The translations under genes and the position numbers were made by a program. This document shows, in pieces, positions 128 to 54,732 of a DNA stretch of 64,000 nucleotides. Source of the stretch: Patescibacteria group bacterium (GTDB lineage: Bacteria; Patescibacteriota; Gracilibacteria; UBA1369; PNNO01); NCBI GenBank assembly GCA_042568575.1, contig JBHPIO010000007.1, forward strand, positions 275 to 64,274. The letters run 5' to 3'. Below the pieces are notes generated by a model that worked only from the letters and a program-made list of their open reading frames with translations, made no database searches and was not told where the DNA came from. The number at the start of each line of letters is the position of its first letter. The stretch's first letter is position 1.

Positions 128-852
128 TTTGCATAGAATAAGTACTCCTGATTCCCCTCTTTTCCTTTGAGTGGACTTTTTATCTCACCTTTAATTGAAA
201 AACCTTCATTTTTAAAGGCATCTCGCACCCTTTGGAGCGCATTTTCTGCCTCATCGGCATCATTTACTATCCCCTTTTTCACAAATCTCTTACCAACTTC
301 AAATTGTGGCTTAATTAAAGCGATAACTCGTGTCTTTTTTGACGAGAATTGCTTCAAAACATCAATAATTTCACAAATAGAGATAAAAGAGACGTCAATA
401 ACAATCAAATCAAGCTCCTCTTTAATATTTGAGGAGGAAAAACCCCGAATATCGCTACCTTCAAAGGAAATAACACGCTCATCTGATCGCAAAGACTTAT
501 GCAACTGATCCCTTCCCACATCTACCGCATATACCTTTAAAGCACCTTTTTGAAGCAAACAATCAGTAAAACCGCCTGTCGAAGAACCGATATCAAGACA
601 AGTAAAGCCTTTAACATCACAATTAAACTCGTTTAAGGCAGCTTCCAACTTCATTCCGCTACGACTCACGTACTTAATCCCCTCTTTCACCTCAACCGTA
701 TCCCCTTCTTTCACCTTCAAAGAAGGCTTTTTAGCTATTTGACTATTCAAAGTAACTTTCCCACTTTCTATAAGGAATTTAGCCTTTTCACGCGATTCAA
801 CTAAGCTTTTATTTACTAGATAACGATCTAATCGAACGATGCTCGCGTCCAT
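121..852 (-). CDS. tlyA: TlyA-family rRNA 2'-O-ribose methyltransferase (hemolysin A-like)
   Basis: S4-like N-terminus (RLDRYLVNKSL..REKAKFLIESGKV) followed by the FtsJ-type SAM motif LDIGSSTGGFTD. ATG at 850-852 (MDASIV..) is preferred to the track start at 912. Confidence 0.85.
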   Translation of the reverse strand: MDASIVRLDRYLVNKSLVESREKAKFLIESGKVTLNSQIAKKPSLKVKEGDTVEVKEGIKYVSRSGMKLEAALNEFNCDVKGFTCLDIGSSTGGFTDCLLQKGALKVYAVDVGRDQLHKSLRSDERVISFEGSDIRGFSSSNIKEELDLIVIDVSFISICEIIDVLKQFSSKKTRVIALIKPQFEVGKRFVKKGIVNDADEAENALQRVRDAFKNEGFSIKGEIKSPLKGKEGNQEYLFYANY

Positions 853-1420
853 TATTGTAAAGATTAGAAAACATTCGAATCCCCTGCTCAAACATACTAT
901 ACGTATAAGCATCTGTTGAAACGCTTTCTAAAAGCAAATCGAGGATATCCTCCCATACTTTATCATATTTTGCCTTATTTAAAAGCAACATTTCACGTAT
1001 TTTTGTGGCTTTCCCATGATAAATAAGACTTCTGAGATCACTTACATTATTCGATACATACTCATATACCGAACCACGCGAAATACCAATATAATCCATC
1101 ACGTACTCCCATTGATCTTCATACTCATTTTCCATCAATCTAAAACTCTTTCGAATCATTTCGGGCCCTTTATCAGCAAACATCTCATGAATATATTCAG
1201 CATTTTGCTTAACACAAGTCTTTACTATGTTTTTTTCATATAAAAGGTAGTCAAAAACCATCTTCCATAGGTCATCCTCTTTAATATCAAGCTTTTTACG
1301 TAACTCATAAGGCCCTTCATCAAGATAAAACTTAACTAGTTTTTTATCAAAACGTTTAAGAAGTTTGAAAATCCTTTCTCTACGAGCCGGCGAATTCATA
1401 ACATCTAGATTAGTATGCAA
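809..1420 (-). CDS. hypothetical protein
   Basis: 203-aa ORF with no family recognised by eye. Its 3' end overlaps the tlyA start by 44 nt. Called coding from its length and the lack of a better competing frame. Confidence 0.55.
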   Translation of the reverse strand: MHTNLDVMNSPARRERIFKLLKRFDKKLVKFYLDEGPYELRKKLDIKEDDLWKMVFDYLLYEKNIVKTCVKQNAEYIHEMFADKGPEMIRKSFRLMENEYEDQWEYVMDYIGISRGSVYEYVSNNVSDLRSLIYHGKATKIREMLLLNKAKYDKVWEDILDLLLESVSTDAYTYSMFEQGIRMFSNLYNNGREHRSIRSLSSK

Positions 1421-1551
1421 AGGTAGTCCATTATACGTAGTTTCGTCATTTTGTCAATACCAACTAGTACCTTTCATTTAAGGGAAGATTGCATTTTTTT
1501 TTAATGATCCTATAGTAGAAATACCATTTAATATATGACCCCCTTTAATAT

Positions 1552-26446: not shown

Positions 26447-26836
26447 ATGTTTTCCAAACTAATACACTCATTTTTCAATGATGATGACTCGCTCCTTGGC
26501 GCAAGTGAGCGTAGACTCGTAAACATGGCTCCAGGTGGTAAGAGAGCACCAAGAAATAAATTCGTGCCTCCAAAACCTGAAACTGCTAAGCGCCCAGAAA
26601 AACTTTCTGCATACGAGTATCACCAGAAGTTCGACAAAGTGATGAAACTAATGAAAGCGAACAAGGCGAAAGTGAGTCTTAGAATTATTCCAAGCCAAGG
26701 TAACAAAGTTGATCTTCCAACATTAAAAGCCGGATTAATTTCAAAAACAAAAAGACTGGCAGAACTCACTGTTGGGACAATTATAAAGAACACCCCCCCC
26801 AAGACAAAAAGCAAAAATGAAACAGCTTTTGAATAA
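26447..26836 (+). CDS. hypothetical basic protein; possibly the true N-terminus of the 2446-aa ORF
   Basis: 129 aa, K/P/R-rich like the linkers of the next ORF. Overlaps it by 20 nt. The C8 tract at 26793-26800 separates the two frames by exactly one nucleotide. Confidence 0.6.
   Translation: MFSKLIHSFFNDDDSLLGASERRLVNMAPGGKRAPRNKFVPPKPETAKRPEKLSAYEYHQKFDKVMKLMKANKAKVSLRIIPSQGNKVDLPTLKAGLISKTKRLAELTVGTIIKNTPPKTKSKNETAFE
26793..26800 (+). repeat. C8 homopolymer tract
   Basis: cacccccccc aag read directly. It is the only long G/C homopolymer I saw in this AT-rich window. Confidence 0.95.
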
Positions 26837-29800
26837 ATTCAAGGAAAATTTACTCGCAAGTATAAGAGATAAAATAACAACAAGAACTGCACTACTAAGA
26901 TTAAGTACAAAAGGCCTTCACTATTTGACTATCGATAAAGATGGGATGATTACGCTTAGCAAAAAAGGAACTGTAGATTATTCAAGTTTAAGTCTTGCAC
27001 CTGCATACGCAGCTAAACCTACTACAAAACCAGGTCAAAAAGCTGCTCCATCAGGAAGACGTAAGGCTACTGCTCCTACAAAAACACCAAAACCAAAACT
27101 AACTCCAAAACAACAAGCACAACTCGAAACTCAACAAAGAAAAGAGCTAATTAGAAAAGCTACTGTTCAGGCTCGAGCATTCCAAAGCCTTCTTAAGACA
27201 CCATACACTTGTACAGTTGATACTAAAAAAACAAGCGTCAATGTAAAAACCCAAACAATCTATATCGATATCCAAAAAAATGGAAAACCATTTGGAACTG
27301 TGCTTTGGGGACCAAAAATTAGCATTTTCCGATTTGAGTACTACGACGTAAATACAAAACAGTACAAAAAATATGGACCGCTTGTTACTACTAAGCAGTT
27401 AAGATCGCGAGTTCAAGATGTAACGAAGATGTGGAAAGTGGTTGGGAAAACACCTCCACTACCACAAAAACCTGGAAAAAAACCAGCCCATGCTACTAAA
27501 CCTACTCCAACAGCAACAAAGAAAGTAGCGCAAAAGCCAACTGCAAAACCTGCAGCGTCTGCAGAATTAAATAAACAAATCGTAGACCTCAAGAAAACTC
27601 TTGGACCAAAATATACTTACATATCAAAGCCTAAGTATGGAACTATTGAACTTTCGCTTCCTGGAAAACAACCATTCACAGCTTTAAAGAAAAGCGCAGA
27701 TGGTTCATGGGTTGTATACAAAAAAGAAGGCGGAAGATGGAAAGAATCTTATAGAGGAAAAAATATGGCAGCGTTTAAAGCTGATGTTGTAAGGCTTGCA
27801 GGAAGAAAGGCGGCACCAAAACCGCTTGCAAAACCTGCAACAGGACCTGTTGAAGTTGCAAAACAAAAAGCTATTCAAGCTGCAGAGAGAATTATTGGAA
27901 GAATCGAATATTATGACAAAGCTAGACAATATACTTTTACAATCGACAAAGCTAACAGTCATAAACATCTAGTAATTCTTGATGTTAAAAAAGGCGGAAA
28001 GGATTTAGGATCAATTCACATCTATAATCCTTTGGATGCAAAACCAACAATTACGTACACAGATACAACCAATAAGATGCATCGATACAGAAGAGCAGAT
28101 GCAACATTTATTGCAATTAACGCATACGCAAACAAAGTTGCTCCTGGGAAAGTACCTCCTGTTTCAAGAGGTGTTGCAAAGAAACCAACTGCTAAACCTG
28201 CAACTAAAGAGATCGACAAATCAAGTCCGCAATACAAAAGAGCTAGAGTAATATTCAAGCAAGGTATAAAAGAATTTGATGGTGGACATTATAAAAAAGC
28301 AATCATTACATTTAAAAAATCGCTTTCCTTAAGTCGAGATCCAAAAATTCATACTAGAATTGCATTATCATATAAATGGCTTGGAGAACCTAGAAAAGCA
28401 TTGAAACATTACAAATTATTTCTTAAGGATTTCAAACCCAAAACTGATAGAGACAAAGCATTACGAAGTCTCGTAGTTAGTAAAATGATCCCACAACTCG
28501 AAAAAGCCATTGCGAAACAGGGAGAAAAACAAAAAACTTCTCCAGAAAAGCAAAAGGCAATCGAAGCCGGAAAACTAAGAATCAAACAGCTTCAAAGAGT
28601 TCCTGGAGGAAAAGATTATAACTATAAAATAGATAGTGTTGTCAAAGGGTTTGCTTTTATACGTATTACAAATAAAAAAGGAGAACGGGTTGGATTTGCT
28701 GCGTTAGATCTTAGAAATAAGAGCAATGATATTGACTACAGCACTCCAGAAAGTAATAAAATACATAATCTAAAAGGCCCAAAAGCCCTAATAGCAGCAA
28801 TAAAAGCATACGAAAAAACTCTCGCTAAAAAAGAGGCGGTTAAAAAACGTACAACAGTTGATCGCAAAAAACTACGATCACAGATTGGACTTTCACAAGC
28901 TGCGGCAACTGAGAAATTCGGAAATCAAATGAATCCTGAAGTTAAAGGTCAGGTTACTTTCGAATTTGGAAAAGACAAACGTGGATCGTTTATTATTGTT
29001 AAATTTAAAGGTGGACGTAAAGGTCTGGCTGAACGCAAATTAACACTTGGTGAGTTATTCAAGTTCGTTGGAAACGACATCCCTCACAACATTCGTGTTA
29101 TAGGAAGAACATGGGGTGGCAGACAAGATAAAATAGGAACTTATTATTCTCATCTTAAAGAATTCCATCATATAAAAGGATCACGTCTTAGAGTTTACCA
29201 CGGAAATAAACTCTACTTTGGACCACGAAGATCTATCGCTATTGCCTCTTCTGCTGCAGAACCACTTAAGCAAGCACAACTTCGTGCAGAAGCTGCAAAA
29301 CGTAAAATAGAAGATACAAAAGAAAGAAAAAATTACGAAGCATTTAAAAAGAAATTAGGCGAGAGAGTTAGAATGCATGATGAAAGCATCAACTTAGCTC
29401 ATTTTGAGGCTTTTATGAATGATGAAGACTACGACGTTCCAAGATTTCTTCAAAGCGATTCTGATTGGAAAACTAACTGGAAATTTGTAAGCAGAGATCT
29501 TCTTAAAACACTAGCTTATCCTCCATTTAAAATTGGAAGAGTTGAGGCTCAAAGAAAATTCTTACAGGAAGCAATCCAACTTAGACTTGATAAATACATC
29601 CAACCAAGTGATTTCTTCAAAGTTAAAATTGAAGGACGATCTATATATAATGGTAGTTATTCTAAATTTAAGGGACGATACGAAGATTTACTTACAACAT
29701 TCGACAAAAAGGAAGTTGATCCATGGGGTGATACTTCAAAACTAAAACCTGCGGATAAAAAACTCGTTGCAGAATTCTTAAAAATGAACGAAACCATTAA

Positions 29801-32800
29801 AGGAATCGCTCGAGTTCTTGATGCACTTTCTAATGTAACTTTACACAAAAGAATGCCGGAAACTGCTGACGATAGATACAGACCACTTATGGTTGGTATT
29901 GGAGTTGCAGGAAAAGGTCAGAAAGAACATTACAAAAATGTTCCGAGTAAAAATTATCACTCATTAAAATCATTACTACATAAGCATGATGGTGCCCCTG
30001 AAGGAATTGCAATCGGAGCATCAGATAAAGTACTGGCAAATTTCAAAGGAGTATATTTTAATTACTTCCACGATGCTGAGCAAATAGCAGATTTTAAGAA
30101 AAAATATGTAGATGGTCCTGCAAATAAAGGGGGCTTGAAACTATTATTCATGTCATTTGGATTCAACTATCTAGTTGCCAAAGGATACCTTAGAAAACTT
30201 TCTAGCGATCCAAAAGACAAACGGTATATTCTTGTTAAAACACCTACAAGAAAAGAATGGGCAACTGCATTAAGCATGTTACCAAAACACAAACCAGCAC
30301 TATGGAGTAACGGAAAAGACAACTTCCAAAAATGGGAAAGAATCCGTGAATCACTTAACAGAAATAAAGCTGCTCAAAGATTTATTAATAAAATCTTTAG
30401 TAACTCACCTGCGGTTGATACTCGTCTAAAAGGACGATTAAAAAGCATGTTCAAAGCAGGTCGAAAGACTCTCGACATGGCGTACTTAAGTAAAGTTACT
30501 TATAACAATGAATTCTACGCAAGATTCATTTCGCCAGAACGAGGAAGAATCAGCTTTACTAACGACAACTTAAAAGACGCTCCTGAAAAAGGATCAAACG
30601 TATATGAATTAAATTCTCAAAAAGTACTCACAAAAGCTAACCTATATATATGGTTATCTTTATGGCACGATCTTTCATACGGATCTGCAGAAGGTAAATA
30701 CGAACAAACTGTAAATAAAATTGCAAAGGATTTCCATATTCCTGGAAGTGTACTTGCTAAGTTTGATACTTCAAATAATGCACCTCCAAAAGCAAGAAAA
30801 GCATTACTTGCAGAAATCTACAAAAGAATCGAATTAAAAAACCTTAATCCATCTAAAATTAATCCGGCTTACGGAGAATTTATCCGAACTGGTTTCGTAC
30901 TAGCTCGGCAACAACAGATGGCTGGAAACTTCGACAGCTTTGTTAAATCGCTTCCAGAAGGACTTTCTACAAAACCAATGTACAGAAAGCTTCAAATTGA
31001 AGCGTTCAAGAGAGGTTGTCCTATACATCAACTTCCTCAAATTGAACAACGTGTAAATGCGGCAATCTTTGCGACATTGAACATGGGATTTGATGCGGCA
31101 AAAAAGCTTGATTACGTTGAAGCATCAGCTGGTGGAGTTGTAAGTGTAAATATTGGTAAATGGCTTGGTGCGGAATGGAAAATTGGAATTTCTGGATTAG
31201 TTACTCTTGCTGGAGTTGCTGCAAGTGGAGGAATAGAAGCAGCATGGGCATGGGGTAAAGCAAAAAGATGGCAACTTGGATTCAAACTTGGTGCAGGTGC
31301 AGATGTAAGTTACGGTGGCGGTGTTGGATTCCACGCCGGTGCAGAAGCTACTTTCCAATTCCCTCTTGGGAAATCTGCATGGGATATGTACGCAAGTGCA
31401 TGGGCAGGTATTAGATACAAACAAGCAGCTCTTGGAATTGGTGGTGGTATTGATATCGGTGCTAAATGGAACCAGGCAGTTGCAGATAGAAAAGCAGAAA
31501 TTAAATCTGACTCAAAACGCAAGATTAAGGATATTGAAAAACTAAGATCAGCAGGAAAGATTAAAGAACTTGCTGCTGCACTTCGAAAACATCCTGTATT
31601 CGGAGACTGGTTCAAAGAATACGAAAGAAAAATGACTTCAATGAACTTACATGTTTCAGACGAAGTAATGGTAGATTTGTATACTCGAACAAAAGCATAC
31701 TGGCAGAACAAAGCTCGCGAAGGAGTTAAAGTTCCACCTGTAGTTGGAGTTGGAATACGAGTTATTCCATACCCTCCATTCGTTATACCTTATATAGATA
31801 TCAACATTGGTGGAAACAAAGTAATCTACACTACTCGTCGTGAACATCCTTTATATAACGAGAGAACTCAAACAAGGGTAAGTAATGAAGCAATAAATCA
31901 GAAACTCAAAAAACAAATCATGGCTAGGCACGGTTCAAGAGTTGTTTCTAAACTTAGCATCTTGGCAAAGAGTGGATCTCCATTCTACGATGCACGCGTT
32001 GGACGAACCAACGTTGTAAACCGTCCTGGAAAAGGTAGAGAAACAAGCTCGGTTAACTTTGGATCACGATTTGAATCGATCAAAAGTGCATTTGCTAAAC
32101 ATCACATACACATAAGACGAGTTAAATTAGCAGGTCATGGAAACGTAATTGAGCTTACTCCTTTAAGAACAGAGGGAAGTAACGTTGAATTCGTGATGCC
32201 TCCAGGACTTGGAAAAGCTGTAATTCTTGATAAAAGCAAGAACAGAGTACTTCTTGCAGCTAGCATGTTAAAGAAACTCTATATTACACGTCAAAGAATT
32301 GAACTCCCATATAGAGGGCATGGTGATGCTGTTAATAAAGAAGTAATCGTATTCAAGACAAACAGATATCAAACAACTAGTGAGATCAGACAGACTGCTC
32401 CACACACTATATATAAATACAGAAATCAAAAATACAGAATCGTTGCAGGATCTAGACGTGATTCAATTGAAGGCGGTGGAGACATTATAACACTTGCAGA
32501 ATTCAATAAACGAAGAGACCTTGCAAAAGAGCGCGCATCAAGAAAGATTCCAAAAATTCTTGATTACAAAACATATATGGCTCTTATCACACGTAAACCT
32601 CCTTTAAGTGATAAAGAATTGAGACTACATTTCGGTCATAGATATGGAAAATATGAAACCACTCAGGCCATTAGTAGATTCCAGGATCGTCTTAAAAAAG
32701 ACCGAGGTGATACAGCTGATATGCGCAAAGCATTACAATTTGAAAAAAAGGTTGGATTAGACGTAAAGAGAAGTGCTGAACTTCTTACTACAGTGAGTAT

Positions 32801-34157
32801 AGATTATTATAAGGATAATAAAAAATCGTTTGATAACCTTGTTGGAAGTATTAGCGGTGCAAGAGACAACGAAATGGGTATTAAACAGAAAATCTTTAAG
32901 AATATTCAATCATACGTAATCGGTGTAGTTGAGAAAGCCAAAGGTCGCAAACTTACAGCTGCAGAACGTGCTAAAGCAATGCCAACACAACACGAGCTGA
33001 ACTTGATGTATTCAATCATATTAGATCACAGTTTCGTTAAAGTACTTGGCGGACCTGATTGGAAGATTAAACGTCGAATTGAGGCACGTAACAAACTATT
33101 TAAAGCTTATTTAAAAACATCAATTAAAGATTGGAAACGAAAATATCCAAATCAATGGAAGCGCATTAAAGAGAATGTTGATAATATGCCGGAATCAAAA
33201 CGAATTGGTTTCAAACTTACTATCGAAACTCTTGCAAACCACATTGTTCTAACAATGCCTCAAACAGTTAAACAGCTAAAGGAATTTATTAAATCAAAAA
33301 CAAAGCCAATCGGTGCAGGTATGAGATTCGCATCTTACTCACAAAGAAGTGCGAAAAACAAAGCAATGCCGGCAACATATGGTATGGAAAATCATCCAGT
33401 AGCACTCGCTAAGTCTGGAATTTTCAGATTGATTAATGCTCAGCCACAAAACTTAAACTCTCCAAAACCTTTGGAAAGAGCTGCAGCTAGAACAATTCTA
33501 TCAATGCTTTCACCTTTGGATACAGGTAAAAAGAGGCTTGATAGTCCAAATGAAACTATTAAAGCAAAATCACGAGCTGCATTCTTGAAGTCAGACTTAC
33601 CAATACTATTACTGTCGCTTCAAGATCCAAACCTAAAAGTATCTCCTCTGATAAGAGTTCTTGGAAGAGATAAATTTAATCAAATTACCGAGCTTTATAA
33701 GGGTATTAAAAAAGGATTAGACAAACCGAAAGATCCTAAAGAATGGATCACACTATTAAATAAAAATGAAGCTGCATTCCAAATCTTTAGAGCGTTTGTA
33801 GAAAAAGTAAGACACGCTCAATTAAACAATCCTCCAGTTAATAAAGAAGGAGATAAGGAAGTAGTGTTCGGGAAATCAATTATCCGAATCCATACAGAAC
33901 TAGGATCAGGAGGATACCTAAAATGTATGAACGGAACAGTTTACCTAAAACGAAGCTTCTCATTCAGTTCAACTGATACAGAAAGACACGAATGGGTGGT
34001 TGCAAGCGACAAACGTCGAACAGGAGTTATCAACAGATCGGGTAAAGCTGCTAGAAAACTCGCTGTTGGTGCAGGATTATGGGCATCCGCTAAAGGCAAA
34101 AAACGGCCCCCAGGTGGAAGACGTCCACCTAAGCAAACAGCACAAGGTAGACGTTAG
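26817..34157 (+). CDS. giant Lys/Arg-rich protein (2446 aa), function unknown
   Basis: Uninterrupted 7.3-kb ORF. N-terminal repeated modules joined by P/T/K/A linkers, a TPR-like stretch, a central Gly/Ala/Trp-rich segment and a basic C-terminal tail (KGKKRPPGGRRPPKQTAQGRR). No N-terminal signal peptide seen. Confidence 0.85.
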   Translation: MKQLLNKFKENLLASIRDKITTRTALLRLSTKGLHYLTIDKDGMITLSKKGTVDYSSLSLAPAYAAKPTTKPGQKAAPSGRRKATAPTKTPKPKLTPKQQAQLETQQRKELIRKATVQARAFQSLLKTPYTCTVDTKKTSVNVKTQTIYIDIQKNGKPFGTVLWGPKISIFRFEYYDVNTKQYKKYGPLVTTKQLRSRVQDVTKMWKVVGKTPPLPQKPGKKPAHATKPTPTATKKVAQKPTAKPAASAELNKQIVDLKKTLGPKYTYISKPKYGTIELSLPGKQPFTALKKSADGSWVVYKKEGGRWKESYRGKNMAAFKADVVRLAGRKAAPKPLAKPATGPVEVAKQKAIQAAERIIGRIEYYDKARQYTFTIDKANSHKHLVILDVKKGGKDLGSIHIYNPLDAKPTITYTDTTNKMHRYRRADATFIAINAYANKVAPGKVPPVSRGVAKKPTAKPATKEIDKSSPQYKRARVIFKQGIKEFDGGHYKKAIITFKKSLSLSRDPKIHTRIALSYKWLGEPRKALKHYKLFLKDFKPKTDRDKALRSLVVSKMIPQLEKAIAKQGEKQKTSPEKQKAIEAGKLRIKQLQRVPGGKDYNYKIDSVVKGFAFIRITNKKGERVGFAALDLRNKSNDIDYSTPESNKIHNLKGPKALIAAIKAYEKTLAKKEAVKKRTTVDRKKLRSQIGLSQAAATEKFGNQMNPEVKGQVTFEFGKDKRGSFIIVKFKGGRKGLAERKLTLGELFKFVGNDIPHNIRVIGRTWGGRQDKIGTYYSHLKEFHHIKGSRLRVYHGNKLYFGPRRSIAIASSAAEPLKQAQLRAEAAKRKIEDTKERKNYEAFKKKLGERVRMHDESINLAHFEAFMNDEDYDVPRFLQSDSDWKTNWKFVSRDLLKTLAYPPFKIGRVEAQRKFLQEAIQLRLDKYIQPSDFFKVKIEGRSIYNGSYSKFKGRYEDLLTTFDKKEVDPWGDTSKLKPADKKLVAEFLKMNETIKGIARVLDALSNVTLHKRMPETADDRYRPLMVGIGVAGKGQKEHYKNVPSKNYHSLKSLLHKHDGAPEGIAIGASDKVLANFKGVYFNYFHDAEQIADFKKKYVDGPANKGGLKLLFMSFGFNYLVAKGYLRKLSSDPKDKRYILVKTPTRKEWATALSMLPKHKPALWSNGKDNFQKWERIRESLNRNKAAQRFINKIFSNSPAVDTRLKGRLKSMFKAGRKTLDMAYLSKVTYNNEFYARFISPERGRISFTNDNLKDAPEKGSNVYELNSQKVLTKANLYIWLSLWHDLSYGSAEGKYEQTVNKIAKDFHIPGSVLAKFDTSNNAPPKARKALLAEIYKRIELKNLNPSKINPAYGEFIRTGFVLARQQQMAGNFDSFVKSLPEGLSTKPMYRKLQIEAFKRGCPIHQLPQIEQRVNAAIFATLNMGFDAAKKLDYVEASAGGVVSVNIGKWLGAEWKIGISGLVTLAGVAASGGIEAAWAWGKAKRWQLGFKLGAGADVSYGGGVGFHAGAEATFQFPLGKSAWDMYASAWAGIRYKQAALGIGGGIDIGAKWNQAVADRKAEIKSDSKRKIKDIEKLRSAGKIKELAAALRKHPVFGDWFKEYERKMTSMNLHVSDEVMVDLYTRTKAYWQNKAREGVKVPPVVGVGIRVIPYPPFVIPYIDINIGGNKVIYTTRREHPLYNERTQTRVSNEAINQKLKKQIMARHGSRVVSKLSILAKSGSPFYDARVGRTNVVNRPGKGRETSSVNFGSRFESIKSAFAKHHIHIRRVKLAGHGNVIELTPLRTEGSNVEFVMPPGLGKAVILDKSKNRVLLAASMLKKLYITRQRIELPYRGHGDAVNKEVIVFKTNRYQTTSEIRQTAPHTIYKYRNQKYRIVAGSRRDSIEGGGDIITLAEFNKRRDLAKERASRKIPKILDYKTYMALITRKPPLSDKELRLHFGHRYGKYETTQAISRFQDRLKKDRGDTADMRKALQFEKKVGLDVKRSAELLTTVSIDYYKDNKKSFDNLVGSISGARDNEMGIKQKIFKNIQSYVIGVVEKAKGRKLTAAERAKAMPTQHELNLMYSIILDHSFVKVLGGPDWKIKRRIEARNKLFKAYLKTSIKDWKRKYPNQWKRIKENVDNMPESKRIGFKLTIETLANHIVLTMPQTVKQLKEFIKSKTKPIGAGMRFASYSQRSAKNKAMPATYGMENHPVALAKSGIFRLINAQPQNLNSPKPLERAAARTILSMLSPLDTGKKRLDSPNETIKAKSRAAFLKSDLPILLLSLQDPNLKVSPLIRVLGRDKFNQITELYKGIKKGLDKPKDPKEWITLLNKNEAAFQIFRAFVEKVRHAQLNNPPVNKEGDKEVVFGKSIIRIHTELGSGGYLKCMNGTVYLKRSFSFSSTDTERHEWVVASDKRRTGVINRSGKAARKLAVGAGLWASAKGKKRPPGGRRPPKQTAQGRR
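27114..29200 (+). repeat. protein-level repeats: about 5 diverged modules of 80-100 aa plus a TPR-like insert
   Basis: Recurring cores: YTCTVDTKKTSVNVKTQTIYIDIQKNGKPFGTV / YTYISKPKYGTIELSLPGKQPF / YTFTIDKANSHKHLVILDVKKGGKDLGSIHIY / YNYKIDSVVKGFAFIRITNKKGERVGFAALD / VTFEFGKDKRGSFIIVKFKGGRKGLAE. They are separated by KP/TP/AP-rich linkers. Confidence 0.6.
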
Positions 34158-40176: not shown

Positions 40177-41163
40177 ATGGCAAAAAAGAATAACGTATTT
40201 CTTTTTTACGGAGAGGAAACTTACTTAGCTCATCAGAAGCTAAAGCTTTGGCGTGAAAAGTTTGAGGAGAAGTATGGTGGGGATATGAACATTGCCCAAT
40301 TGGAAGGCAAGGGTTTGCAATCTTCAGATTTGGAGAGCGATATCCAGTCAGCTCCTTTTTTGGCTGAAAAGAGGCTTGTTATAGTTACAGACTTTTTAGC
40401 AAAGGGAACAAAAGACGAACAAAAAAAAGTTGCGGAGATATTAGAAAAAGAAGTCCCTGACTTCTGCATTCTCGTTTTTTCGGAAGATAAAATGCCAGAC
40501 AAACGTGCGTCACTTTATAAAAAACTAAATAAAGTCGGAAATCTGGAAGAATTTACTGCATTAATGGGGCACTCGCTTGCAAAATGGATTATGGATAGAG
40601 CGGTAGAGAAAGAAATGAAGATTCCAATGGCAATGGCAGATTATCTCGGAGAAGTTGCAGGGAGTGATCTTTGGAATCTTGAAAACGAACTAAATAAACT
40701 AAAAATGTATAGTCGAGAAAAACCAATCACGAAGGAAGCAATCGACGATCTTGTTCATCCGAATTTAACAACAACTATCTTTAAGTTTACAGACTATCTT
40801 GCTCAAAGAAATCCGAAAGGTTCACTTCACACCTTGCATATTTTGCTTGAAAGCGGCGAAGATATTGTGAAAATTTTGTTTATGATTGTGAGACATTTCA
40901 GAATTCTTATTCAAGTTAAAGATCTTGTAGATCGTGGAACAAGAAAGCCTGATATTGTTTCTAGGCTCAAGCAGCACCCTTATACAATCTCAACAACAAT
41001 GCAACAAAGCCCCAACTTTTCTCCGCAATCACTACGGAAAGTTTATGAGGCTTTGCTACAAATTGATATAGGTCTTAAGACCGGTAAGATACGACTTTTA
41101 GCTGATGACAAGAAAGAAATCTTGCTGGCACTCGAACAGTTTGTTCATACTGTTTGTGCCTAG
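40177..41163 (+). CDS. holA: DNA polymerase III subunit delta
   Basis: 328 aa with a delta-subunit N-terminal pattern (VFLFYGEETYL..) and a C-terminal helical domain. Confidence 0.8.
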   Translation: MAKKNNVFLFYGEETYLAHQKLKLWREKFEEKYGGDMNIAQLEGKGLQSSDLESDIQSAPFLAEKRLVIVTDFLAKGTKDEQKKVAEILEKEVPDFCILVFSEDKMPDKRASLYKKLNKVGNLEEFTALMGHSLAKWIMDRAVEKEMKIPMAMADYLGEVAGSDLWNLENELNKLKMYSREKPITKEAIDDLVHPNLTTTIFKFTDYLAQRNPKGSLHTLHILLESGEDIVKILFMIVRHFRILIQVKDLVDRGTRKPDIVSRLKQHPYTISTTMQQSPNFSPQSLRKVYEALLQIDIGLKTGKIRLLADDKKEILLALEQFVHTVCA

Positions 41164-45347: not shown

Positions 45348-47547
45348 CCTTTTTAACTGATTGAACACCCGCGGTTCTTTCTATAGATGAAAGAATTTTT
45401 TCAAATTGGTTAAAATCTGATATTTCAACAAGTAATTCCCACAAGAAACTTCTTTGGGTTTCCTTTTTAATATAAAACTGCAAAATCGAACCTTTCGATT
45501 TCTCAATCTCCTTTGTTACATCACGCATAACATAAGTATTTGGTGCTGTTTCAACATATAAAGAAACCTGCCTCAGCATTTCATCTTCAAGCGTCCCAAC
45601 CCAGTGAGCATTAATATACCGATCTTCGTTACTCATCTTTAGAATTTTGCATCCTTTCTTATGGATACTTATCGCTCTACCACGAGTAACATATCCAGCA
45701 ATAGGCTGTCCGAAACCAGGCTTACAACACTGTGCACGTTTAACAGGAAGCCCTTTTTCTCCACCAGCTACAACATACTTCCCTATCTCGCTTTCTTTCT
45801 TTATATCAACAATTTTTGAAGGCGCAACTTTCTTAACTTTTTTCTTTCCGATAATTTCATCATACGAAAAAACTTTGCTAATAGCAGAGGATGGAAGCAT
45901 AGACCCATTCCCAACCTGCCTTACAAGTTCTTCACGCTCTTTATAGCTCAAAGCTTTTCCATCAATATTTCTAAAAAGTGACATTTTCGGATCCAGGATA
46001 GGCTTTCCAATTTGCGTAAGCTTAGCGTTAATCAATTCTCTTCCTTCTCTAAGATTGTCCTCTTTATCAAAACTTCGAAAATAACTCTTAATTTTCGTTC
46101 TCGCGCCGGAAGTTTTTGCAAAAGCCAACCACTCGAGCTTCGGTTCAACATTATTTCTAGTAAGAATTTCAATAACCTCACCGTTTTGAAGTTCATGATG
46201 AAGAGGAATAATAGATCCATTTGCTTTAGCCATCGTACATTTGTGTCCAACATCAGTATGAATTGCATAGGCGAAATCAATTGGAGTCGATCCTACAGGC
46301 AAATCGAGGACTTCTCCGTCTGGAGTAAAAACAAAAATCCGATCCTGAAAAAGATCTACTTTCAAATCATTTAAAACTTCCTCATCGTCCTCGTTTTCAA
46401 AATGTGAACTTACTTTTGTAAGATTTGTAATCCATTCCAGGTGTGCTTTTTGTCGATCCTGAGAATTCCCATTAGATTCCTTGTAAAGCCAGTGAGAAGC
46501 GATTCCATATTCAGCCTCTTCATGCATTTTGTCGGTACGCACCTGAATTTCAACAGGCTCCTTAACAGAATGAGGCGCTAGCCCAATCACGGTTGTATGC
46601 AAACTTCTGTAACCATTAGGTTTTGGAAATCCGATATAATCTTTAAAACGACCAGGCAAAGGCTTCCAATTCGTATGGATATGACCAATAAGACGATACA
46701 AATCATCTACTTTTTCCTTTCCACCTTTCTCAAATTTTGACGGAAGAATAATTCGAAGCGCAAAAATATCATGAATTTCATCAATAGATGTTTTTCCCTT
46801 TTTCTTTAATTTTTTGTAAATACTGTAAGTGTTCTTAAAACGTCCGGCAACACGGGCATCGTATCCGTTCTCCTTCAAATAATCCTCTGCTGCAAGGGTA
46901 ATATCGTCGACAACATTTTTTCGCTTTTTACCAAGAAGTTTTAATTGTTCCTGAATATTTTTATACTCACTGTTATTCAAATTTTTGAAACACAAATCTT
47001 CAAGCGTGGATCTAATATGATACACACCTAATCGTGATGCAATCGGCACATAAATTTCGAGAGTTTCACGCGCAATACGTTTTCTCTTTTCGGGTTTTAC
47101 ATATTCGAGCGTTTGCAAATTGTGAAGTCGATCCGCAAGTTTAATAAGTACAACTCTGAGATCTTTCGCCATCACAAGAAACATTTTTCGAAGCGTTTCA
47201 AGCTCTGCTCCTTTAACAGACGACCTTACGGTTCCAATTCTTTCAAATGCCGAAACAAGCAAACTTACATTTTTTCCGAATTTTTTCTCGATATCTTTAA
47301 TTTTAAAATCCGTATATTGAGGAACTTCATGAAGAAGAGCTGCAATTAAAGTTTCTTCATCAACTTTTAAAGTTGAAAGAATTTTTGCAGTTTCAAGAGT
47401 ATGACTAATAACGGGATCACCCGAAAAACGACTGTGCCCTTCGTACGCTTCATTTGCAAAAGCAAAAGCTGTTGCCAGATTTTGCTCTGATATTGAAGAG
47501 TTGTAGTCCTTAACCCGCTTTAAGAAATTACTGAATTCGCGCTGCAT
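45340..47547 (-). CDS. RelA/SpoT homologue (long RSH, (p)ppGpp synthetase; hydrolase site looks degenerate)
   Basis: Synthetase motifs GRFKNTYSIYKKL, RFKDYIGFPKPNGYRSLHTTV and EIQVRTDKMHEEAEYG. TGS and ACT-like C-terminal domains. The HD region reads LLHEVPQYTD rather than LHDV(V/I)EDT. Confidence 0.9.
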   Translation of the reverse strand: MQREFSNFLKRVKDYNSSISEQNLATAFAFANEAYEGHSRFSGDPVISHTLETAKILSTLKVDEETLIAALLHEVPQYTDFKIKDIEKKFGKNVSLLVSAFERIGTVRSSVKGAELETLRKMFLVMAKDLRVVLIKLADRLHNLQTLEYVKPEKRKRIARETLEIYVPIASRLGVYHIRSTLEDLCFKNLNNSEYKNIQEQLKLLGKKRKNVVDDITLAAEDYLKENGYDARVAGRFKNTYSIYKKLKKKGKTSIDEIHDIFALRIILPSKFEKGGKEKVDDLYRLIGHIHTNWKPLPGRFKDYIGFPKPNGYRSLHTTVIGLAPHSVKEPVEIQVRTDKMHEEAEYGIASHWLYKESNGNSQDRQKAHLEWITNLTKVSSHFENEDDEEVLNDLKVDLFQDRIFVFTPDGEVLDLPVGSTPIDFAYAIHTDVGHKCTMAKANGSIIPLHHELQNGEVIEILTRNNVEPKLEWLAFAKTSGARTKIKSYFRSFDKEDNLREGRELINAKLTQIGKPILDPKMSLFRNIDGKALSYKEREELVRQVGNGSMLPSSAISKVFSYDEIIGKKKVKKVAPSKIVDIKKESEIGKYVVAGGEKGLPVKRAQCCKPGFGQPIAGYVTRGRAISIHKKGCKILKMSNEDRYINAHWVGTLEDEMLRQVSLYVETAPNTYVMRDVTKEIEKSKGSILQFYIKKETQRSFLWELLVEISDFNQFEKILSSIERTAGVQSVKKVT

Positions 47548-47600
47548 TGCTTCCTTTGCTTATTTGACTAGAGTGTTAATTATATGTCAAAGAAACCCTT

Positions 47601-47681
47601 GAGTAAAGAATAGAAATAACCCCGGGGCGCTCAACTGGTATAGGTAGGATGGACGTGGAGTCCGCCAGTTGCGCCCCGGGG
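47601..47681 (-). terminator. strong GC-rich hairpin terminator of the small GC-rich gene
   Basis: Arms 47620-47638 and 47665-47681 (ccccggggcgc[tc]aactgg / ccagttgcgccccgggg), about 17 bp with a 2-nt bulge. On the minus strand it is followed by TTATTTCTATTCTTT. Confidence 0.7.
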
Positions 47682-47703
47682 TGGAGGGATGTGTGTGGGA
47701 AGG

Positions 47704-47919
47704 TCAGAAGTGGAAGGGAGAGATGAAGAAGTGAGTGATCAGCAGTACTCCAGCGGCGAGTACAAAGCCGATGACCATGGTGACCATGTCCTGCTTCTCC
47801 TTCGAAGGAATCACCTTGTAGAGACTCCAAGAGAAAAGCCCGGTCAGCACTGCAGCGGCCAACGCGAGGAGAGGCAAAGCTATCAGTGGCGATAACTTTG
47901 CAAGAATCAAACTCGTCAT
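47704..47919 (-). CDS. small two-TM hydrophobic protein (71 aa) in a GC-rich island
   Basis: MTSLILAKLSPLIALPLLALAAAVLTGLFSWSLYKVIPSKEKQDMVTMVIGFVLAAGVLLITHFFISPFHF: two clean hydrophobic helices split by a charged loop. The alternative GTG start at 48003 gives 99 aa. Confidence 0.6.
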   Translation of the reverse strand: MTSLILAKLSPLIALPLLALAAAVLTGLFSWSLYKVIPSKEKQDMVTMVIGFVLAAGVLLITHFFISPFHF

Positions 47920-47951
47920 TCTAGAAACCCATCCTTTCTTTGCATACTTTC

Positions 47952-47973
47952 CACACTCCCAGTTGAGAGTGTG
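47952..47973 (-). other. 5' leader hairpin of the small gene
   Basis: 7-bp stem cacactc/gagtgtg with an 8-nt loop, between the promoter and the ATG at 47919. Confidence 0.45.
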
Positions 47974-48012
47974 CCGGATTGTCAAACAACCAACATACTT
48001 CACGATGGGCTA

Positions 48013-48040
48013 ATTATAGTTCGTTCCTAGGATTTGTCAA
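48013..48040 (-). promoter_or_regulatory. consensus sigma70 promoter (minus strand)
   Basis: The minus strand reads TTGACA (48040-48035), a 16-nt spacer, then TATAAT (48018-48013). Both hexamers are perfect consensus. Confidence 0.7.
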
Positions 48041-48065
48041 TCTCCTCCCGGGTGGAATCTAAAAA

Positions 48066-49880
48066 TTAAATCTCCTCTTCATGGATAATCAAATCCAACG
48101 TTGAGCCTCTAATATCAACAACTTTCACTCCTTTAATTAAAGCTGGCTTATTATATTCTACATCTTTTATACGCGCTTCCATGTTTGCTGTTGCTATTTC
48201 AAACATACCAACCAATTTAGCTAAACTGTTATACTCAGCCTTTAAATCGATCTGTTCTTGTGAAACGTTAATAAATTCATTTAATAATGTATTGGATTTA
48301 GAACTTTCAAGCTTTTCCATCGCAGTAAAGAAATCATCCTCATACTGCTCTTTTAAAGTCGTAACCTCATTAAATTGAACCTTTAGCGCATCTTTTCTCA
48401 CGTTAATTTCATGCATAGTCGAAATTGCCTCATCTTGCGCATCGTTAAGTTCATCCAAATGAAACTCAAGTGCCTTTTGTCTATTTGAAGAATTATCTAG
48501 TAATTGATGAATATCCGTTGAGAAAGTATTTTGAAGTTTTGCTAGAGCCTGCATGTATGTAGCAATTCGATCTGCTTTATCTTCAGGAGTTTCCGGAAGC
48601 CCAACGCTAAATACAGACTGAATTCCCGAAGAAATTCTTTTGATTTGCGGGATATCTTCGCCGGTAACAAAAATTGTCTGGATACCTTCTTCAAATTTTT
48701 CCAAAGAAGTTCCTTTGTTTGATCCTGCTACAAAAAGCGTAATCAAACCATCGGTGTATTCACCCGAAGGCTGCGTAACTTCGCCTGTATCCCCAACTGG
48801 TTGAGTAACTTCTGTCTGATCACCTCCATAAATAAAATCAACAACACCTCCATAAATCAATTGTGGAACCTTGAAAAGAAAAATCGCTAAAAGAATACCT
48901 ATAACAAGACAACCACGAATAACGTATTTAATAATAATTCCAATTACTTCTTTTCTTTCAGCATCATCATCCGCGAGTGTTTCAGTCGGCGCAACTGGAG
49001 ATGCTGGCTCTGGTTCTATTGTTTCTGGTTCAATTATCTCTTCAGGAATCTCTGCTGGTGCCTCTTCTACTACTTTTTCTTCTGATTCTGGTTCCTGCGG
49101 AGCTTCTTCGACAGGTGCAGGAATAGGCACAGGAATTGGAGTAACTGAGTCTCCCGTATCATCATAATCTTTTTTAATTGCGTCTTTCAACTGATTCCAT
49201 CCAACTGGTCCCGCCGGTTTTTCTTCCATATGAAATGGCGATGGTTCATTTGGTTTTGGTCCTCCTTTCGGCTCTGGTTCAGCAGGCACTGGTGTTGGCT
49301 CCGAAACTGGTTCCGACGTAGGTGATTCTGGCACAACAGGTGCTTCTGGAGGAGGCGGAACACCTAAAAGCTCATCATCTGTAAGTTCCTCTTCAACAGG
49401 TTCTGGTTCTGCTACCGGTGGTTCTGGCGCAGAAGGTAAAACTTCCTCTTCTGGCTCTGCTACCGGTGGTTCCTCTGGCGCTTCAATATCAAAAGTTTCC
49501 GGCTCAACTGGAGCCATGGGTTCTTCAGGAGCTGAAACTGGAGCAGGAGCAGGCATCGGTTCAGTTTTTGTAGACTCTTCTGGTTCTCCTAAAACTAAAT
49601 CTTCAAGACTTTTCGATTCTTCCTCAATCTTTTCTGGTTTTGGCTGAGCAGGCTGCTCGACAGACTTTGGTACAACCTGTTTTTGAGACTGCTGCTGCCC
49701 TTGCTGCGATGATTGCCCAGTCGTTGGCTTCTTCTTTTTCCTTCTTCGACGTTTTTTCTTTGGAGGCTGAGAAGTTTGCCCACCTTGAACACTGCCAGTT
49801 TTTTGCTGCGGATTTCCACCCTGCGGCTTAGCTGGTTTAGTATTATCGTCCTGTTTCTGTGCACCTTGATCTTCAGCCAT
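48066..49880 (-). CDS. hypothetical membrane protein with a polybasic/PE-rich disordered N-region and a coiled-coil C-domain
   Basis: 604 aa. Q/G/P-rich start with KKKRRRRKKKK, about 250 aa of P/E/A/V-rich low complexity, one TM (IRGCLVIGILLAIFLF), then a helical C-terminal domain. Confidence 0.7.
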   Translation of the reverse strand: MAEDQGAQKQDDNTKPAKPQGGNPQQKTGSVQGGQTSQPPKKKRRRRKKKKPTTGQSSQQGQQQSQKQVVPKSVEQPAQPKPEKIEEESKSLEDLVLGEPEESTKTEPMPAPAPVSAPEEPMAPVEPETFDIEAPEEPPVAEPEEEVLPSAPEPPVAEPEPVEEELTDDELLGVPPPPEAPVVPESPTSEPVSEPTPVPAEPEPKGGPKPNEPSPFHMEEKPAGPVGWNQLKDAIKKDYDDTGDSVTPIPVPIPAPVEEAPQEPESEEKVVEEAPAEIPEEIIEPETIEPEPASPVAPTETLADDDAERKEVIGIIIKYVIRGCLVIGILLAIFLFKVPQLIYGGVVDFIYGGDQTEVTQPVGDTGEVTQPSGEYTDGLITLFVAGSNKGTSLEKFEEGIQTIFVTGEDIPQIKRISSGIQSVFSVGLPETPEDKADRIATYMQALAKLQNTFSTDIHQLLDNSSNRQKALEFHLDELNDAQDEAISTMHEINVRKDALKVQFNEVTTLKEQYEDDFFTAMEKLESSKSNTLLNEFINVSQEQIDLKAEYNSLAKLVGMFEIATANMEARIKDVEYNKPALIKGVKVVDIRGSTLDLIIHEEEI

Positions 49881-50814: not shown

Positions 50815-51432
50815 ATGGATAAATCGCAAGAAGAGAAAAATGGTCGTAGTTTGAAATCGCGTGGAGTGAGATTCGCCACTTGGCTGGGTAATGTCACAAG
50901 TACAAAAAGACGCTCAGGCAAAATTATCTCCGGAATCTTCATCGCTATTATAGCAGGACTTACCTGCTACCTTTTTTGGTCGCAACGTTATATCAAAGGA
51001 GAAATCTCCAGCTTTCGCAAGACAGTTGAAAGCAAAAAAATACTAAGCACAATCAGAAAGGAGTGCAAAAAAAATCCGGATCTGGGTGCTTACAATAAGT
51101 GCTTAAACAGCAAACTTACCGCATCAGTTGATCTACATGCGTCAAAACTGTATGCGAAGTTAAAAAGCATATGCTCCTACAATAAGGTCAAGAAATTCCC
51201 CTATTGTGTACAAAGTTCTCTTCGCAAATTTGCGTGGGATAGCAAAGATCTAGTGCTCAAACTGATCGCGATGAGGGTCATCGACAAGCTCGAAGACCCA
51301 CCCAAAGACCTCAAAGATGACGCGGACAAGTACTACGGCGACGCCGTAAAGCTCGAAAGAAAAGGCCGCCTCGTCTTCATCACGCCAGTCTGCCCGTGCA
51401 AGTCAAAACCCTCAAAAAAACCTACCCCATAG
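50815..51432 (+). CDS. hypothetical Cys-rich type-II membrane protein, compositionally atypical
   Basis: 205 aa. GGGAG Shine-Dalgarno about 10 nt upstream, one TM (IISGIFIAIIAGLTCYLFW) and 7 Cys in the ectodomain. The 3' 170 nt are about 52% GC. Confidence 0.6.
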   Translation: MDKSQEEKNGRSLKSRGVRFATWLGNVTSTKRRSGKIISGIFIAIIAGLTCYLFWSQRYIKGEISSFRKTVESKKILSTIRKECKKNPDLGAYNKCLNSKLTASVDLHASKLYAKLKSICSYNKVKKFPYCVQSSLRKFAWDSKDLVLKLIAMRVIDKLEDPPKDLKDDADKYYGDAVKLERKGRLVFITPVCPCKSKPSKKPTP

Positions 51433-51605
51433 GCATTCCGACCTATTTTCCCCCTCAAGTCGTCAAAACAAAACGAAATTTGCCAACAAATCTCTAAAGA
51501 AGGCAAATCTTTATTAGGACTCTCCCTTCACTTTTTGCGCTTCTACAGCTAGAATCTTACAGGTCATGTTTTTTTATATATATTATTTACCTAACATCAT
51601 TTCAC

Positions 51606-54530: not shown

Positions 54531-54732
54531 ATCTCACTTCTCTTTCTCAGAGATGATTCTCCGCTTCTTCCATTTAAAATACTTAAATAAGAGAAGTCGG
54601 GAATCACCTTATTGAGATAAAAGATAATACGTTCACTCCACTTTTTTACCAATTATTTTGTATTTTCAAAGAACAGGAGGCAGATAATACCAGCCATAGT
54701 CCTTTTCGTCAAGAAGTGCCGCTTTGAAACAC

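Follow-up and report, generated by a model that had tools for sequence, protein, structure and literature searches.

How does a GC-rich segment of some 441 bp come to lie in a short spacer between two chromosomal genes of a patescibacterium, and what does it encode? The question is posed by contig JBHPIO010000007.1 of a Patescibacteria group bacterium, of which a window of 64,000 nt (the whole stretch of DNA analysed here) was studied. The contig has ~37% GC, and a search with its RelA/SpoT protein places the organism as Patescibacteria, Peregrinibacteria-like. Between the genes for that RelA/SpoT homologue and for a 604-aa protein, at 47620-48060 on the minus strand, lies the strongest composition outlier of the window, the island that concerns us here. 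An earlier reading of the sequence (the original prediction) took it for a foreign, self-contained unit with a small membrane protein, and the core of that reading holds up: the island is absent from seven relatives, is an outlier by 5-7 standard deviations (sd) in composition and codon usage, carries a promoter and a strong hairpin, and contains an open reading frame (ORF) of non-random character. Overall, we believe that the island is probably a horizontally acquired, self-contained one-gene transcription unit for an orphan small membrane protein, resembling the morons of phages.

Judged from alignments with syntenic relatives, the island is a genuine lineage-specific insertion. In the window, 518 nt separate the stop codon of the upstream gene from the RelA/SpoT ATG, whereas the same gap measures 48-84 nt in the seven relatives that are readable at the locus: ~84 nt in L001 (RelA/SpoT identity 89%), 65 nt in L009 (84%), 48 nt in L002 (57%) and 72-76 nt in L098-L101 (~60-62%). 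The island is absent from all seven, and we therefore take it to be an insertion of ~441 bp gained in this lineage, with boundaries (+/-2 nt) set by alignment with L001 and L009, by intergenic lengths and by G+C. The order of the surrounding genes, namely H+-pyrophosphatase (H+-PPase), Yip1, the 5xx-aa gene, RelA/SpoT, RecO and FtsX, is unchanged in L002 and L098-L101, where both flanks can be read, and the order in L009 and L001 agrees up to the contig limits.

The insertion point falls between the stop codon of the 604-aa gene and the native -35 element of RelA/SpoT, neither of which is damaged, and the target spacer between these two landmarks was roughly 20-35 bp before the insertion. The original prediction had the island fill the entire gap, and in this it went too far: the 72 nt at 47548-47619 (29% GC), next to the RelA/SpoT ATG, are the host's conserved RelA/SpoT promoter and leader and lie outside the island. 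That native promoter, TTTACT-17-TATAAT at 47579-47607 (minus strand), is intact and, by promoter scan and three-way alignment, conserved in L001 and L009. At the junctions, TA or TTA stands on both sides of the island, against a single TTTA in L001, a pattern that could represent a short target duplication and that is too short to tell from chance.

The foreign character of the island is equally evident in its composition. The sliding-window G+C scan that the original prediction proposed places the maximum of the 64 kb inside the island, at 47620-47819 (0.575 per 200 nt, against a mean of 0.367 and an sd of 0.041), and the island as a whole has 52% G+C; the G+C counts made by hand at the outset, 53 of 100 nt in 47701-47800 and 20 of 60 nt in 48121-48180, proved exact on recount. 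Codon usage tells the same story, as had been claimed. G+C at the three codon positions of the island ORF (GC1/2/3) is 0.50/0.375/0.667, and its GC3 of 0.667 compares with 0.241 +/- 0.060 in 1580 windows of 72 codons taken from host ORFs, none of which reaches 0.667. CTG and CTC make up eight of the 14 Leu codons, against 13% in the background of neighbouring genes.

The ORF itself, with its TGA stop, occupies 47704-47919 on the minus strand (MTSLILAKLSPLIALPLLALAAAVLTGLFSWSLYKVIPSKEKQDMVTMVIGFVLAAGVLLITHFFISPFHF; by translation) and runs for 71 codons from ATG 47919 to TGA 47706-47704, just as first described. Its predicted product consists of two hydrophobic helices that flank the loop YKVIPSKEKQD, and AlphaFold2, run on the single sequence, folds residues 2-36 and 40-69 into the two helices of a helical hairpin, at a mean predicted local distance difference test score (pLDDT) of 79. 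The hydrophobic pattern is not random: the mean hydropathy of 1.30 is matched by the longest ORF in none of 2000 dinucleotide shuffles, and the other five reading frames are not hydrophobic. In addition, the codon-position pattern GC3 > GC1 > GC2 is strongest in the reading frame of the ORF.

Upstream of the ORF, a sigma-70-type promoter at 48013-48040 (minus strand) consists of TTGACA (48040-48035), a 16-nt spacer and TATAAT (48018-48013), a match at all 12 consensus positions that bears out the original prediction and of which, by arithmetic estimate, ~1.6e-4 would be expected by chance in 441 bp. In the 64 kb only two such 12/12 sites occur, that of the island and one at 1457 on the minus strand, against ~0.02 expected by chance, so that promoters in this genome are unusually near consensus and consensus promoters belong to its native style. 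The second perfect TTGACA-16-TATAAT, at 1430-1457 (minus strand), stands before a native 203-aa ORF (809-1420, minus strand), and sites that match at 11 of 12 positions occur three times in the window, at 1802 (plus strand), 18029 and 50798 (both minus strand). Transcription from the island promoter would start near A48006, given the usual distance of 7 nt, which leaves a predicted 5' leader of ~87 nt (47920-48006, minus strand). By direct reading, a 7-bp hairpin (47973-47952) lies in this leader, as do an AAAGGA motif and a three-codon mini-ORF, ATG GGT TTC TAG (47932-47921), which overlaps AAAGGA and ends 1 nt before the main ATG. The hairpin and the mini-ORF are present as reported; the description of the leader as structured is not borne out, its fold being no stronger than that of shuffles (z = -0.92).

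Downstream of the stop codon, a C/U-rich, G-free spacer (CCUUCCCACACACAUCCCUCC, 47683-47703, minus strand), unpaired in the fold, leads to a 3' hairpin at 47619-47682 (minus strand), which inverted repeats I1 and I5 and folding point to as a predicted intrinsic terminator. An outer stem of 12 bp (47682-47671 with 47630-47619) is followed by a GA bulge (47632-47631), an inner stem of 6 bp (47670-47665 with 47638-47633) and a top of 26 nt that includes a small 4-bp stem. At -38.8 kcal/mol (z = -6.4 against dinucleotide shuffles), this is the most stable 80-nt fold of the 64 kb, where the mean is -11.4 and the sd 4.5. A U-rich tract, UAUUUCUAUUCUUUAC (47603-47618, minus strand), follows; aligned with L001 and L009, it is host DNA that extends into the native RelA/SpoT -35 element, and 12 of the 24 nt directly past the hairpin are T. 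With a loop of more than 8 nt, the hairpin escapes a simple terminator scanner. The hairpin is the sole remarkable RNA structure of the island, and the transcript body without it is not unusually structured (z = -0.88 and -0.82 for the minus and the plus strand, respectively). The sequence details listed in the original prediction are, in sum, nearly all present, the exceptions being the filled gap, the structured leader and the base-pair count of this hairpin, which with its U-rich tail is there as described and has a stem of 18 bp (12 + 6, with the 2-nt bulge) rather than 17. Two further hairpins in the window, both on the minus strand, are unlike that of the island: one at ~40985-41065 (15 + 8 bp, -42 kcal/mol over 121 nt, z = -4.5), in the 3' part of a 328-aa ORF near a convergent gene end, and an AT-rich, intergenic one of ~60 nt at 54541-54620 (z = -4.1), after a 359-aa gene.

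From these elements we infer transcription, translation, topology, termination and a cellular role for the island along the following lines. The consensus promoter, in the style of the host, would drive strong constitutive transcription from ~48006, and the resulting mRNA of ~390 nt would be translated from ATG 47919 into a protein of 71 residues. The protein would then enter the cytoplasmic membrane as a helical hairpin, with its three-lysine loop most likely on the cytoplasmic side by the positive-inside rule. The -38.8 kcal/mol hairpin and U-tract would terminate the transcript and, as a side effect, shield the RelA/SpoT promoter from read-through of the island and of the 604-aa gene; placed directly before the native -35 element of RelA/SpoT, the terminator should block read-through from the 604-aa gene, whose homologue in the relatives is separated from RelA/SpoT by a short spacer only. 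As for the cellular role, an accessory membrane peptide (for instance a factor that acts in exclusion or immunity, or one that modulates the membrane), as in phage morons, is what we would tentatively suggest by analogy.

The protein has no relative in any of the collections searched. A word search of 5.8 billion clusters returned only the window's own product, and HMMER, run in full against 1.84 billion representatives, recovered nothing beyond the self-hit except two artefacts of tandem repeats (P0002 and P0003). Patterns back-translated from the protein had no match in viral, metagenome or genome collections; a sequence search of the PDB and a Foldseek search with the AlphaFold2 model likewise gave nothing. 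No family in Pfam, PHROGs, NCBIfam or PADLOC was reached at threshold, only sub-threshold transmembrane noise, namely PycTM (14 bits) and the Mbov_0395 pilin-like family (13 bits), and no PHROG match fell below E = 0.02. BLASTN and TBLASTN comparisons brought no relatives in phages or plasmids: tblastn with the ORF found nothing, and blastn found nothing except one 47-nt chance match. The specific hairpin of the island was not found in genome_contigs or viral_contigs, and no second copy or repeat family of the island exists within the 64-kb window. The pattern of the outer stem does occur in 81 metagenome contigs, and we set these aside as unrelated GC-rich hairpins with no further similarity. 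Assignment to a known structured RNA, which the original prediction named as an outcome that would speak against it, found no covariance model to support it: Rfam 15 gave 0 matches at the gathering threshold over the whole window, the best result of a permissive scan of 47300-48300 (E <= 10) was a spurious 18-bit match to a mammalian long non-coding RNA model, and this candidate was rejected on these grounds together with the shuffle-like fold of the transcript body.

Several of these results, and some others, weigh against a functional one-gene unit. In the absence of a homologue in any collection searched, purifying selection on the ORF cannot be shown, and the searches found no donor, insertion mechanism or second copy. 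The length of the ORF is not significant, as 31% of dinucleotide shuffles hold an ATG-initiated ORF of at least 71 aa. The start codon is uncertain, either ATG 47919 or the in-frame GTG 48003, from which a gene caller recorded a 99-aa form (P0001) whose exact sequence is not on record. The AAAGGA motif, which resembles a Shine-Dalgarno (SD) sequence and lies 12 nt from the ATG, says little, because host genes are mostly without SD motifs (31 of 33). Finally, all of the evidence comes from a single metagenome assembly. On the SD count itself, the motif is absent from the 25 nt before the start in 31 of 33 host ORFs of at least 200 aa, the two exceptions being RelA/SpoT and a 205-aa orphan described below, and the lineage seems to start translation mostly without SD pairing.

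Consider, then, the possibility that the island is foreign and its ORF is fortuitous or decaying, so that the whole would be either debris without function or the gene of a small non-coding RNA. The frequency of such ORFs among shuffles and the want of a homologue among 1.84 billion representative proteins or 5.8 billion clusters both fit this explanation, as do the pyrimidine-rich transcribed strand and the ORFs of 68 and 84 aa that are present in two other frames. Those other frames, however, are not hydrophobic, the two-helix pattern is unmatched by the longest ORFs of 2000 shuffles, and the codon-position periodicity of G+C peaks in the very frame of the 71-aa ORF, which a perfect promoter and a strong terminator bracket precisely. 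A non-coding RNA, for its part, fits poorly with the lack of any Rfam match and of excess structure beyond the terminator. Thus we regard a fortuitous ORF as unlikely, and return to the small membrane protein as the product that best accounts for the locus.

If the protein is real, is it a toxin? The original prediction had suggested a type I toxin-like peptide, and one may imagine a type I toxin-antitoxin-like locus, or some other toxic membrane peptide, that is restrained by an RNA antitoxin or by the leader and its mini-ORF. Like Hok, Ldr, Fst, TisB and TxpA, the island encodes a small hydrophobic peptide at a stand-alone intergenic locus, a solitary insertion with its own promoter, a long leader (87 nt) and a tiny upstream ORF, whose three codons adjoin the start codon in a manner that resembles translational coupling. 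Typical type I toxins, however, have one transmembrane helix and fewer than 60 aa, a size and topology that the two helices and 71 aa of the island protein exceed; the leader is not unusually structured; and no Pfam, NCBIfam or PADLOC match to Hok, Ldr, Fst, TisB, Ibs or any other toxin emerged, only sub-threshold transmembrane noise. A sequence scan of the opposite strand found no sigma-70-like promoter within or adjoining either the ORF or the 3' untranslated region; on the plus strand there is only a -10-like TATAGT at 48015, with a poor -35, which points away from the ORF. A perfect consensus promoter would, moreover, presumably be hazardous for an unrepressed toxin. A toxic peptide is therefore highly improbable in our judgement. 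The holin-like alternative offered at the same time fares no better. Class II holins and pinholins such as phage 21 S do share the size of ~70 aa and the two transmembrane helices, but the island protein ends in ...ITHFFISPFHF, without a charged C-terminal tail, and lacks a dual-start motif; nor is there an endolysin or a lysis cassette nearby, where the flanks are the 604-aa coiled-coil membrane protein and RelA/SpoT.

A different kind of doubt concerns the contig, in which a 441-bp piece of a GC-richer organism might have been spliced during assembly or amplification. Composition does change abruptly, the sequence is known from one contig only in the public data searched, and the source is a metagenome assembly. 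Against such an artefact, the host sequence picks up again on either side of the island, at what is a single intergenic point to within a few ambiguous nucleotides, with the stop codon and the native promoter intact, and no repeat longer than 12 nt by which a graph assembler might be misled is common to the island and the rest of the window, for which reasons we hold an assembly chimera to be very unlikely. Indeed, the promoter fits the consensus style of the host, the organism itself is also on record only once (its RelA/SpoT protein, P0004, is single-member), and a second GC3-rich orphan lies 3 kb away on the same contig. Least credible is a mobile element of the non-autonomous type, whether a miniature inverted-repeat transposable element (MITE) or one associated with a palindrome, in which the hairpin would be a recombination signal and the promoter would read outward or into cargo, since the small and precise insertion, the TA/TTA at both junctions, a 10-nt near-repeat TCCACCC(C)GG near both ends (D7) and the very strong subterminal hairpin are set against the lack of convincing terminal inverted repeats (unlike those of MITEs and elements derived from insertion sequences, the island ends pair only weakly, 7/11, CaCCcGGG / CcCCgGGG), of any copy in the 64-kb window or in the genome, viral, metagenome, phage and plasmid collections, and of any related hairpin among the genome, viral and 81 metagenome contigs.

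An integron cassette was also considered and rejected: the stem base of the 3' hairpin, CCCCGGGG/CCCCGGGG, is without the attC core sites R'' (RYYYAAC) and R' (GTTRRRY), and the GCAAC/GTTGAGC-like motifs that are present sit in the inner stem rather than at the base. The gene content of the neighbourhood showed neither an integrase nor a cassette array.

We thus come back to the self-contained unit for a small membrane protein, and to the known elements that it resembles. Closest to it in the way it works are phage morons, which have been described as additional DNA located between two genes that neighbour each other in related genomes, deviating in G+C and equipped with their own promoter and terminator (PMC3594210). 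The island, likewise, is extra DNA between genes that adjoin in its relatives, deviates in G+C (0.52-0.575 against 0.367) and in GC3 (0.667 against 0.241), and has a promoter and terminator of its own, as predicted from sequence alone. It differs in its residence, which is a housekeeping chromosomal block (H+-PPase, Yip1, RelA/SpoT, RecO and FtsX) and not a phage or prophage, and the searches brought up no relative among phages. The cargo of the founding moron example, the gene 15 element of HK97 with its product gp15, is reportedly a small membrane protein as well. Since three of the four defining features are present and phage residence is the one that is missing, we call the island moron-like rather than classing it with the morons. 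A second point of comparison is provided by the Patescibacteria themselves, in which horizontal transfer of individual genes and of genomic islands is documented (PMC12455944). Like the individually transferred genes and ORFans of this group, the island is lineage-specific and atypical in composition within an otherwise syntenic, streamlined genome, but its 441 bp hold promoter, ORF and terminator together, which makes it an unusually small and complete unit, and neither a donor nor a homologue was found for it.

Regardless of the exact function of its product, the island, if real and expressed, would be a clean and minimal case of gene gain in a streamlined Patescibacteria genome, in which a whole promoter-ORF-terminator unit was placed in a spacer of 65-84 nt and left its neighbours undisturbed. 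In this context, moron-type modules would not be limited to phage genomes. In addition, RelA/SpoT transcription may have been altered, since the island terminator now separates this stringent-response gene from its upstream neighbour. At the same time, the island is a fairly ordinary single-gene acquisition, and, its protein being an orphan, the finding does not in itself touch any question of long standing; what it offers is a candidate for small-membrane-protein discovery and a marker of recent horizontal transfer in the lineage.

The left end of the island has features of its own. The frame of the 604-aa gene remains open for 12 codons past its TAA (FLDSTREEIDKS), to a TAG inside the island (48027-48065, minus strand), and GAGGAGATT is present twice, one copy at the gene's end (48077-48069) and the other within the island (48047-48039). 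A 21-mer around the second GAGGAGATT copy matches TREEID-coding stretches in unrelated Clostridia genes. The open stretch may be a short coding remnant from a donor, or may be due to chance. As a lead to the donor, the 21-mer (CCACCCGGGAGGAGATTGACA) was pursued and dropped: it occurs in seven Clostridia metagenome-assembled genomes, in every case within unrelated coding sequence and with similarity that stops at 21-22 nt. All of the matches encode the peptide motif T-R-E-E-I-D, and by inspection five of the genes are PurC-like, one resembles the C-terminus of a PfkB-type kinase and one is class-V aminotransferase-like. That the left end is a C-terminal remnant of an upstream-gene homologue is not supported either, the C-termini of the relatives (…DLIIQE…) being unlike …DSTREEIDKS.

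The island is not the only lineage-specific orphan of the region. A 205-aa ORF at 50815-51432 (plus strand), ~3 kb from the island, lies between the divergent Yip1 and H+-PPase genes, which are 993 nt apart here against ~155-190 nt in L002 and L098-L101. The GC3 of its last 66 codons is 0.667, equal to that of the island ORF, against 0.414 in the first 140; the stretch that stands out most is 51230-51460. An SD-like GGAG, rare in this genome, stands 8 nt before its ATG. Searches with the 205-aa protein returned only a self-hit (P0124), and Pfam and NCBIfam gave no match. The island and this orphan might together represent at least two recent foreign, GC3-rich captures into spacers of a syntenic Peregrinibacteria block, a scenario that we consider doubtful. 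Were it true, ultra-small symbionts would have a recurrent route by which to gain ready-made gene modules, "chromosomal morons" as it were, whose source could be the organism's own host or its phages, and the 71-aa protein would be the first known member of a family of small effectors at the membrane, such as peptides for phage exclusion or immunity, or toxins.

Of the immediate neighbours, the downstream RelA/SpoT homologue has 735 aa and the domains HD_4, RelA_SpoT, TGS and ACT. The upstream gene (48066-49880, minus strand) encodes the 604-aa protein, whose N-terminal half is Pro/Glu-rich and is followed by a single transmembrane helix and a C-terminal domain of coiled-coil-like character, with Yip1, H+-pyrophosphatase, RecO and FtsX as the outer neighbours of the pair. 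The N-terminal half (~330 aa) is of low complexity, rich in Pro, Glu, Ala and Gln, and includes a KKKRRRRKKKK run; it accounts for a G+C peak at 49282-49481. The C-terminal domain has weak matches to DUF713 and DruC, and homologues of the protein in the relatives, 329-688 aa in length, retain a conserved C-terminus. Scans for tRNA and tmRNA found none in the 64-kb window. Another local G+C peak, of 0.51, lies at 31209-31408 inside a 2446-aa ORF (26817-34157, plus strand).

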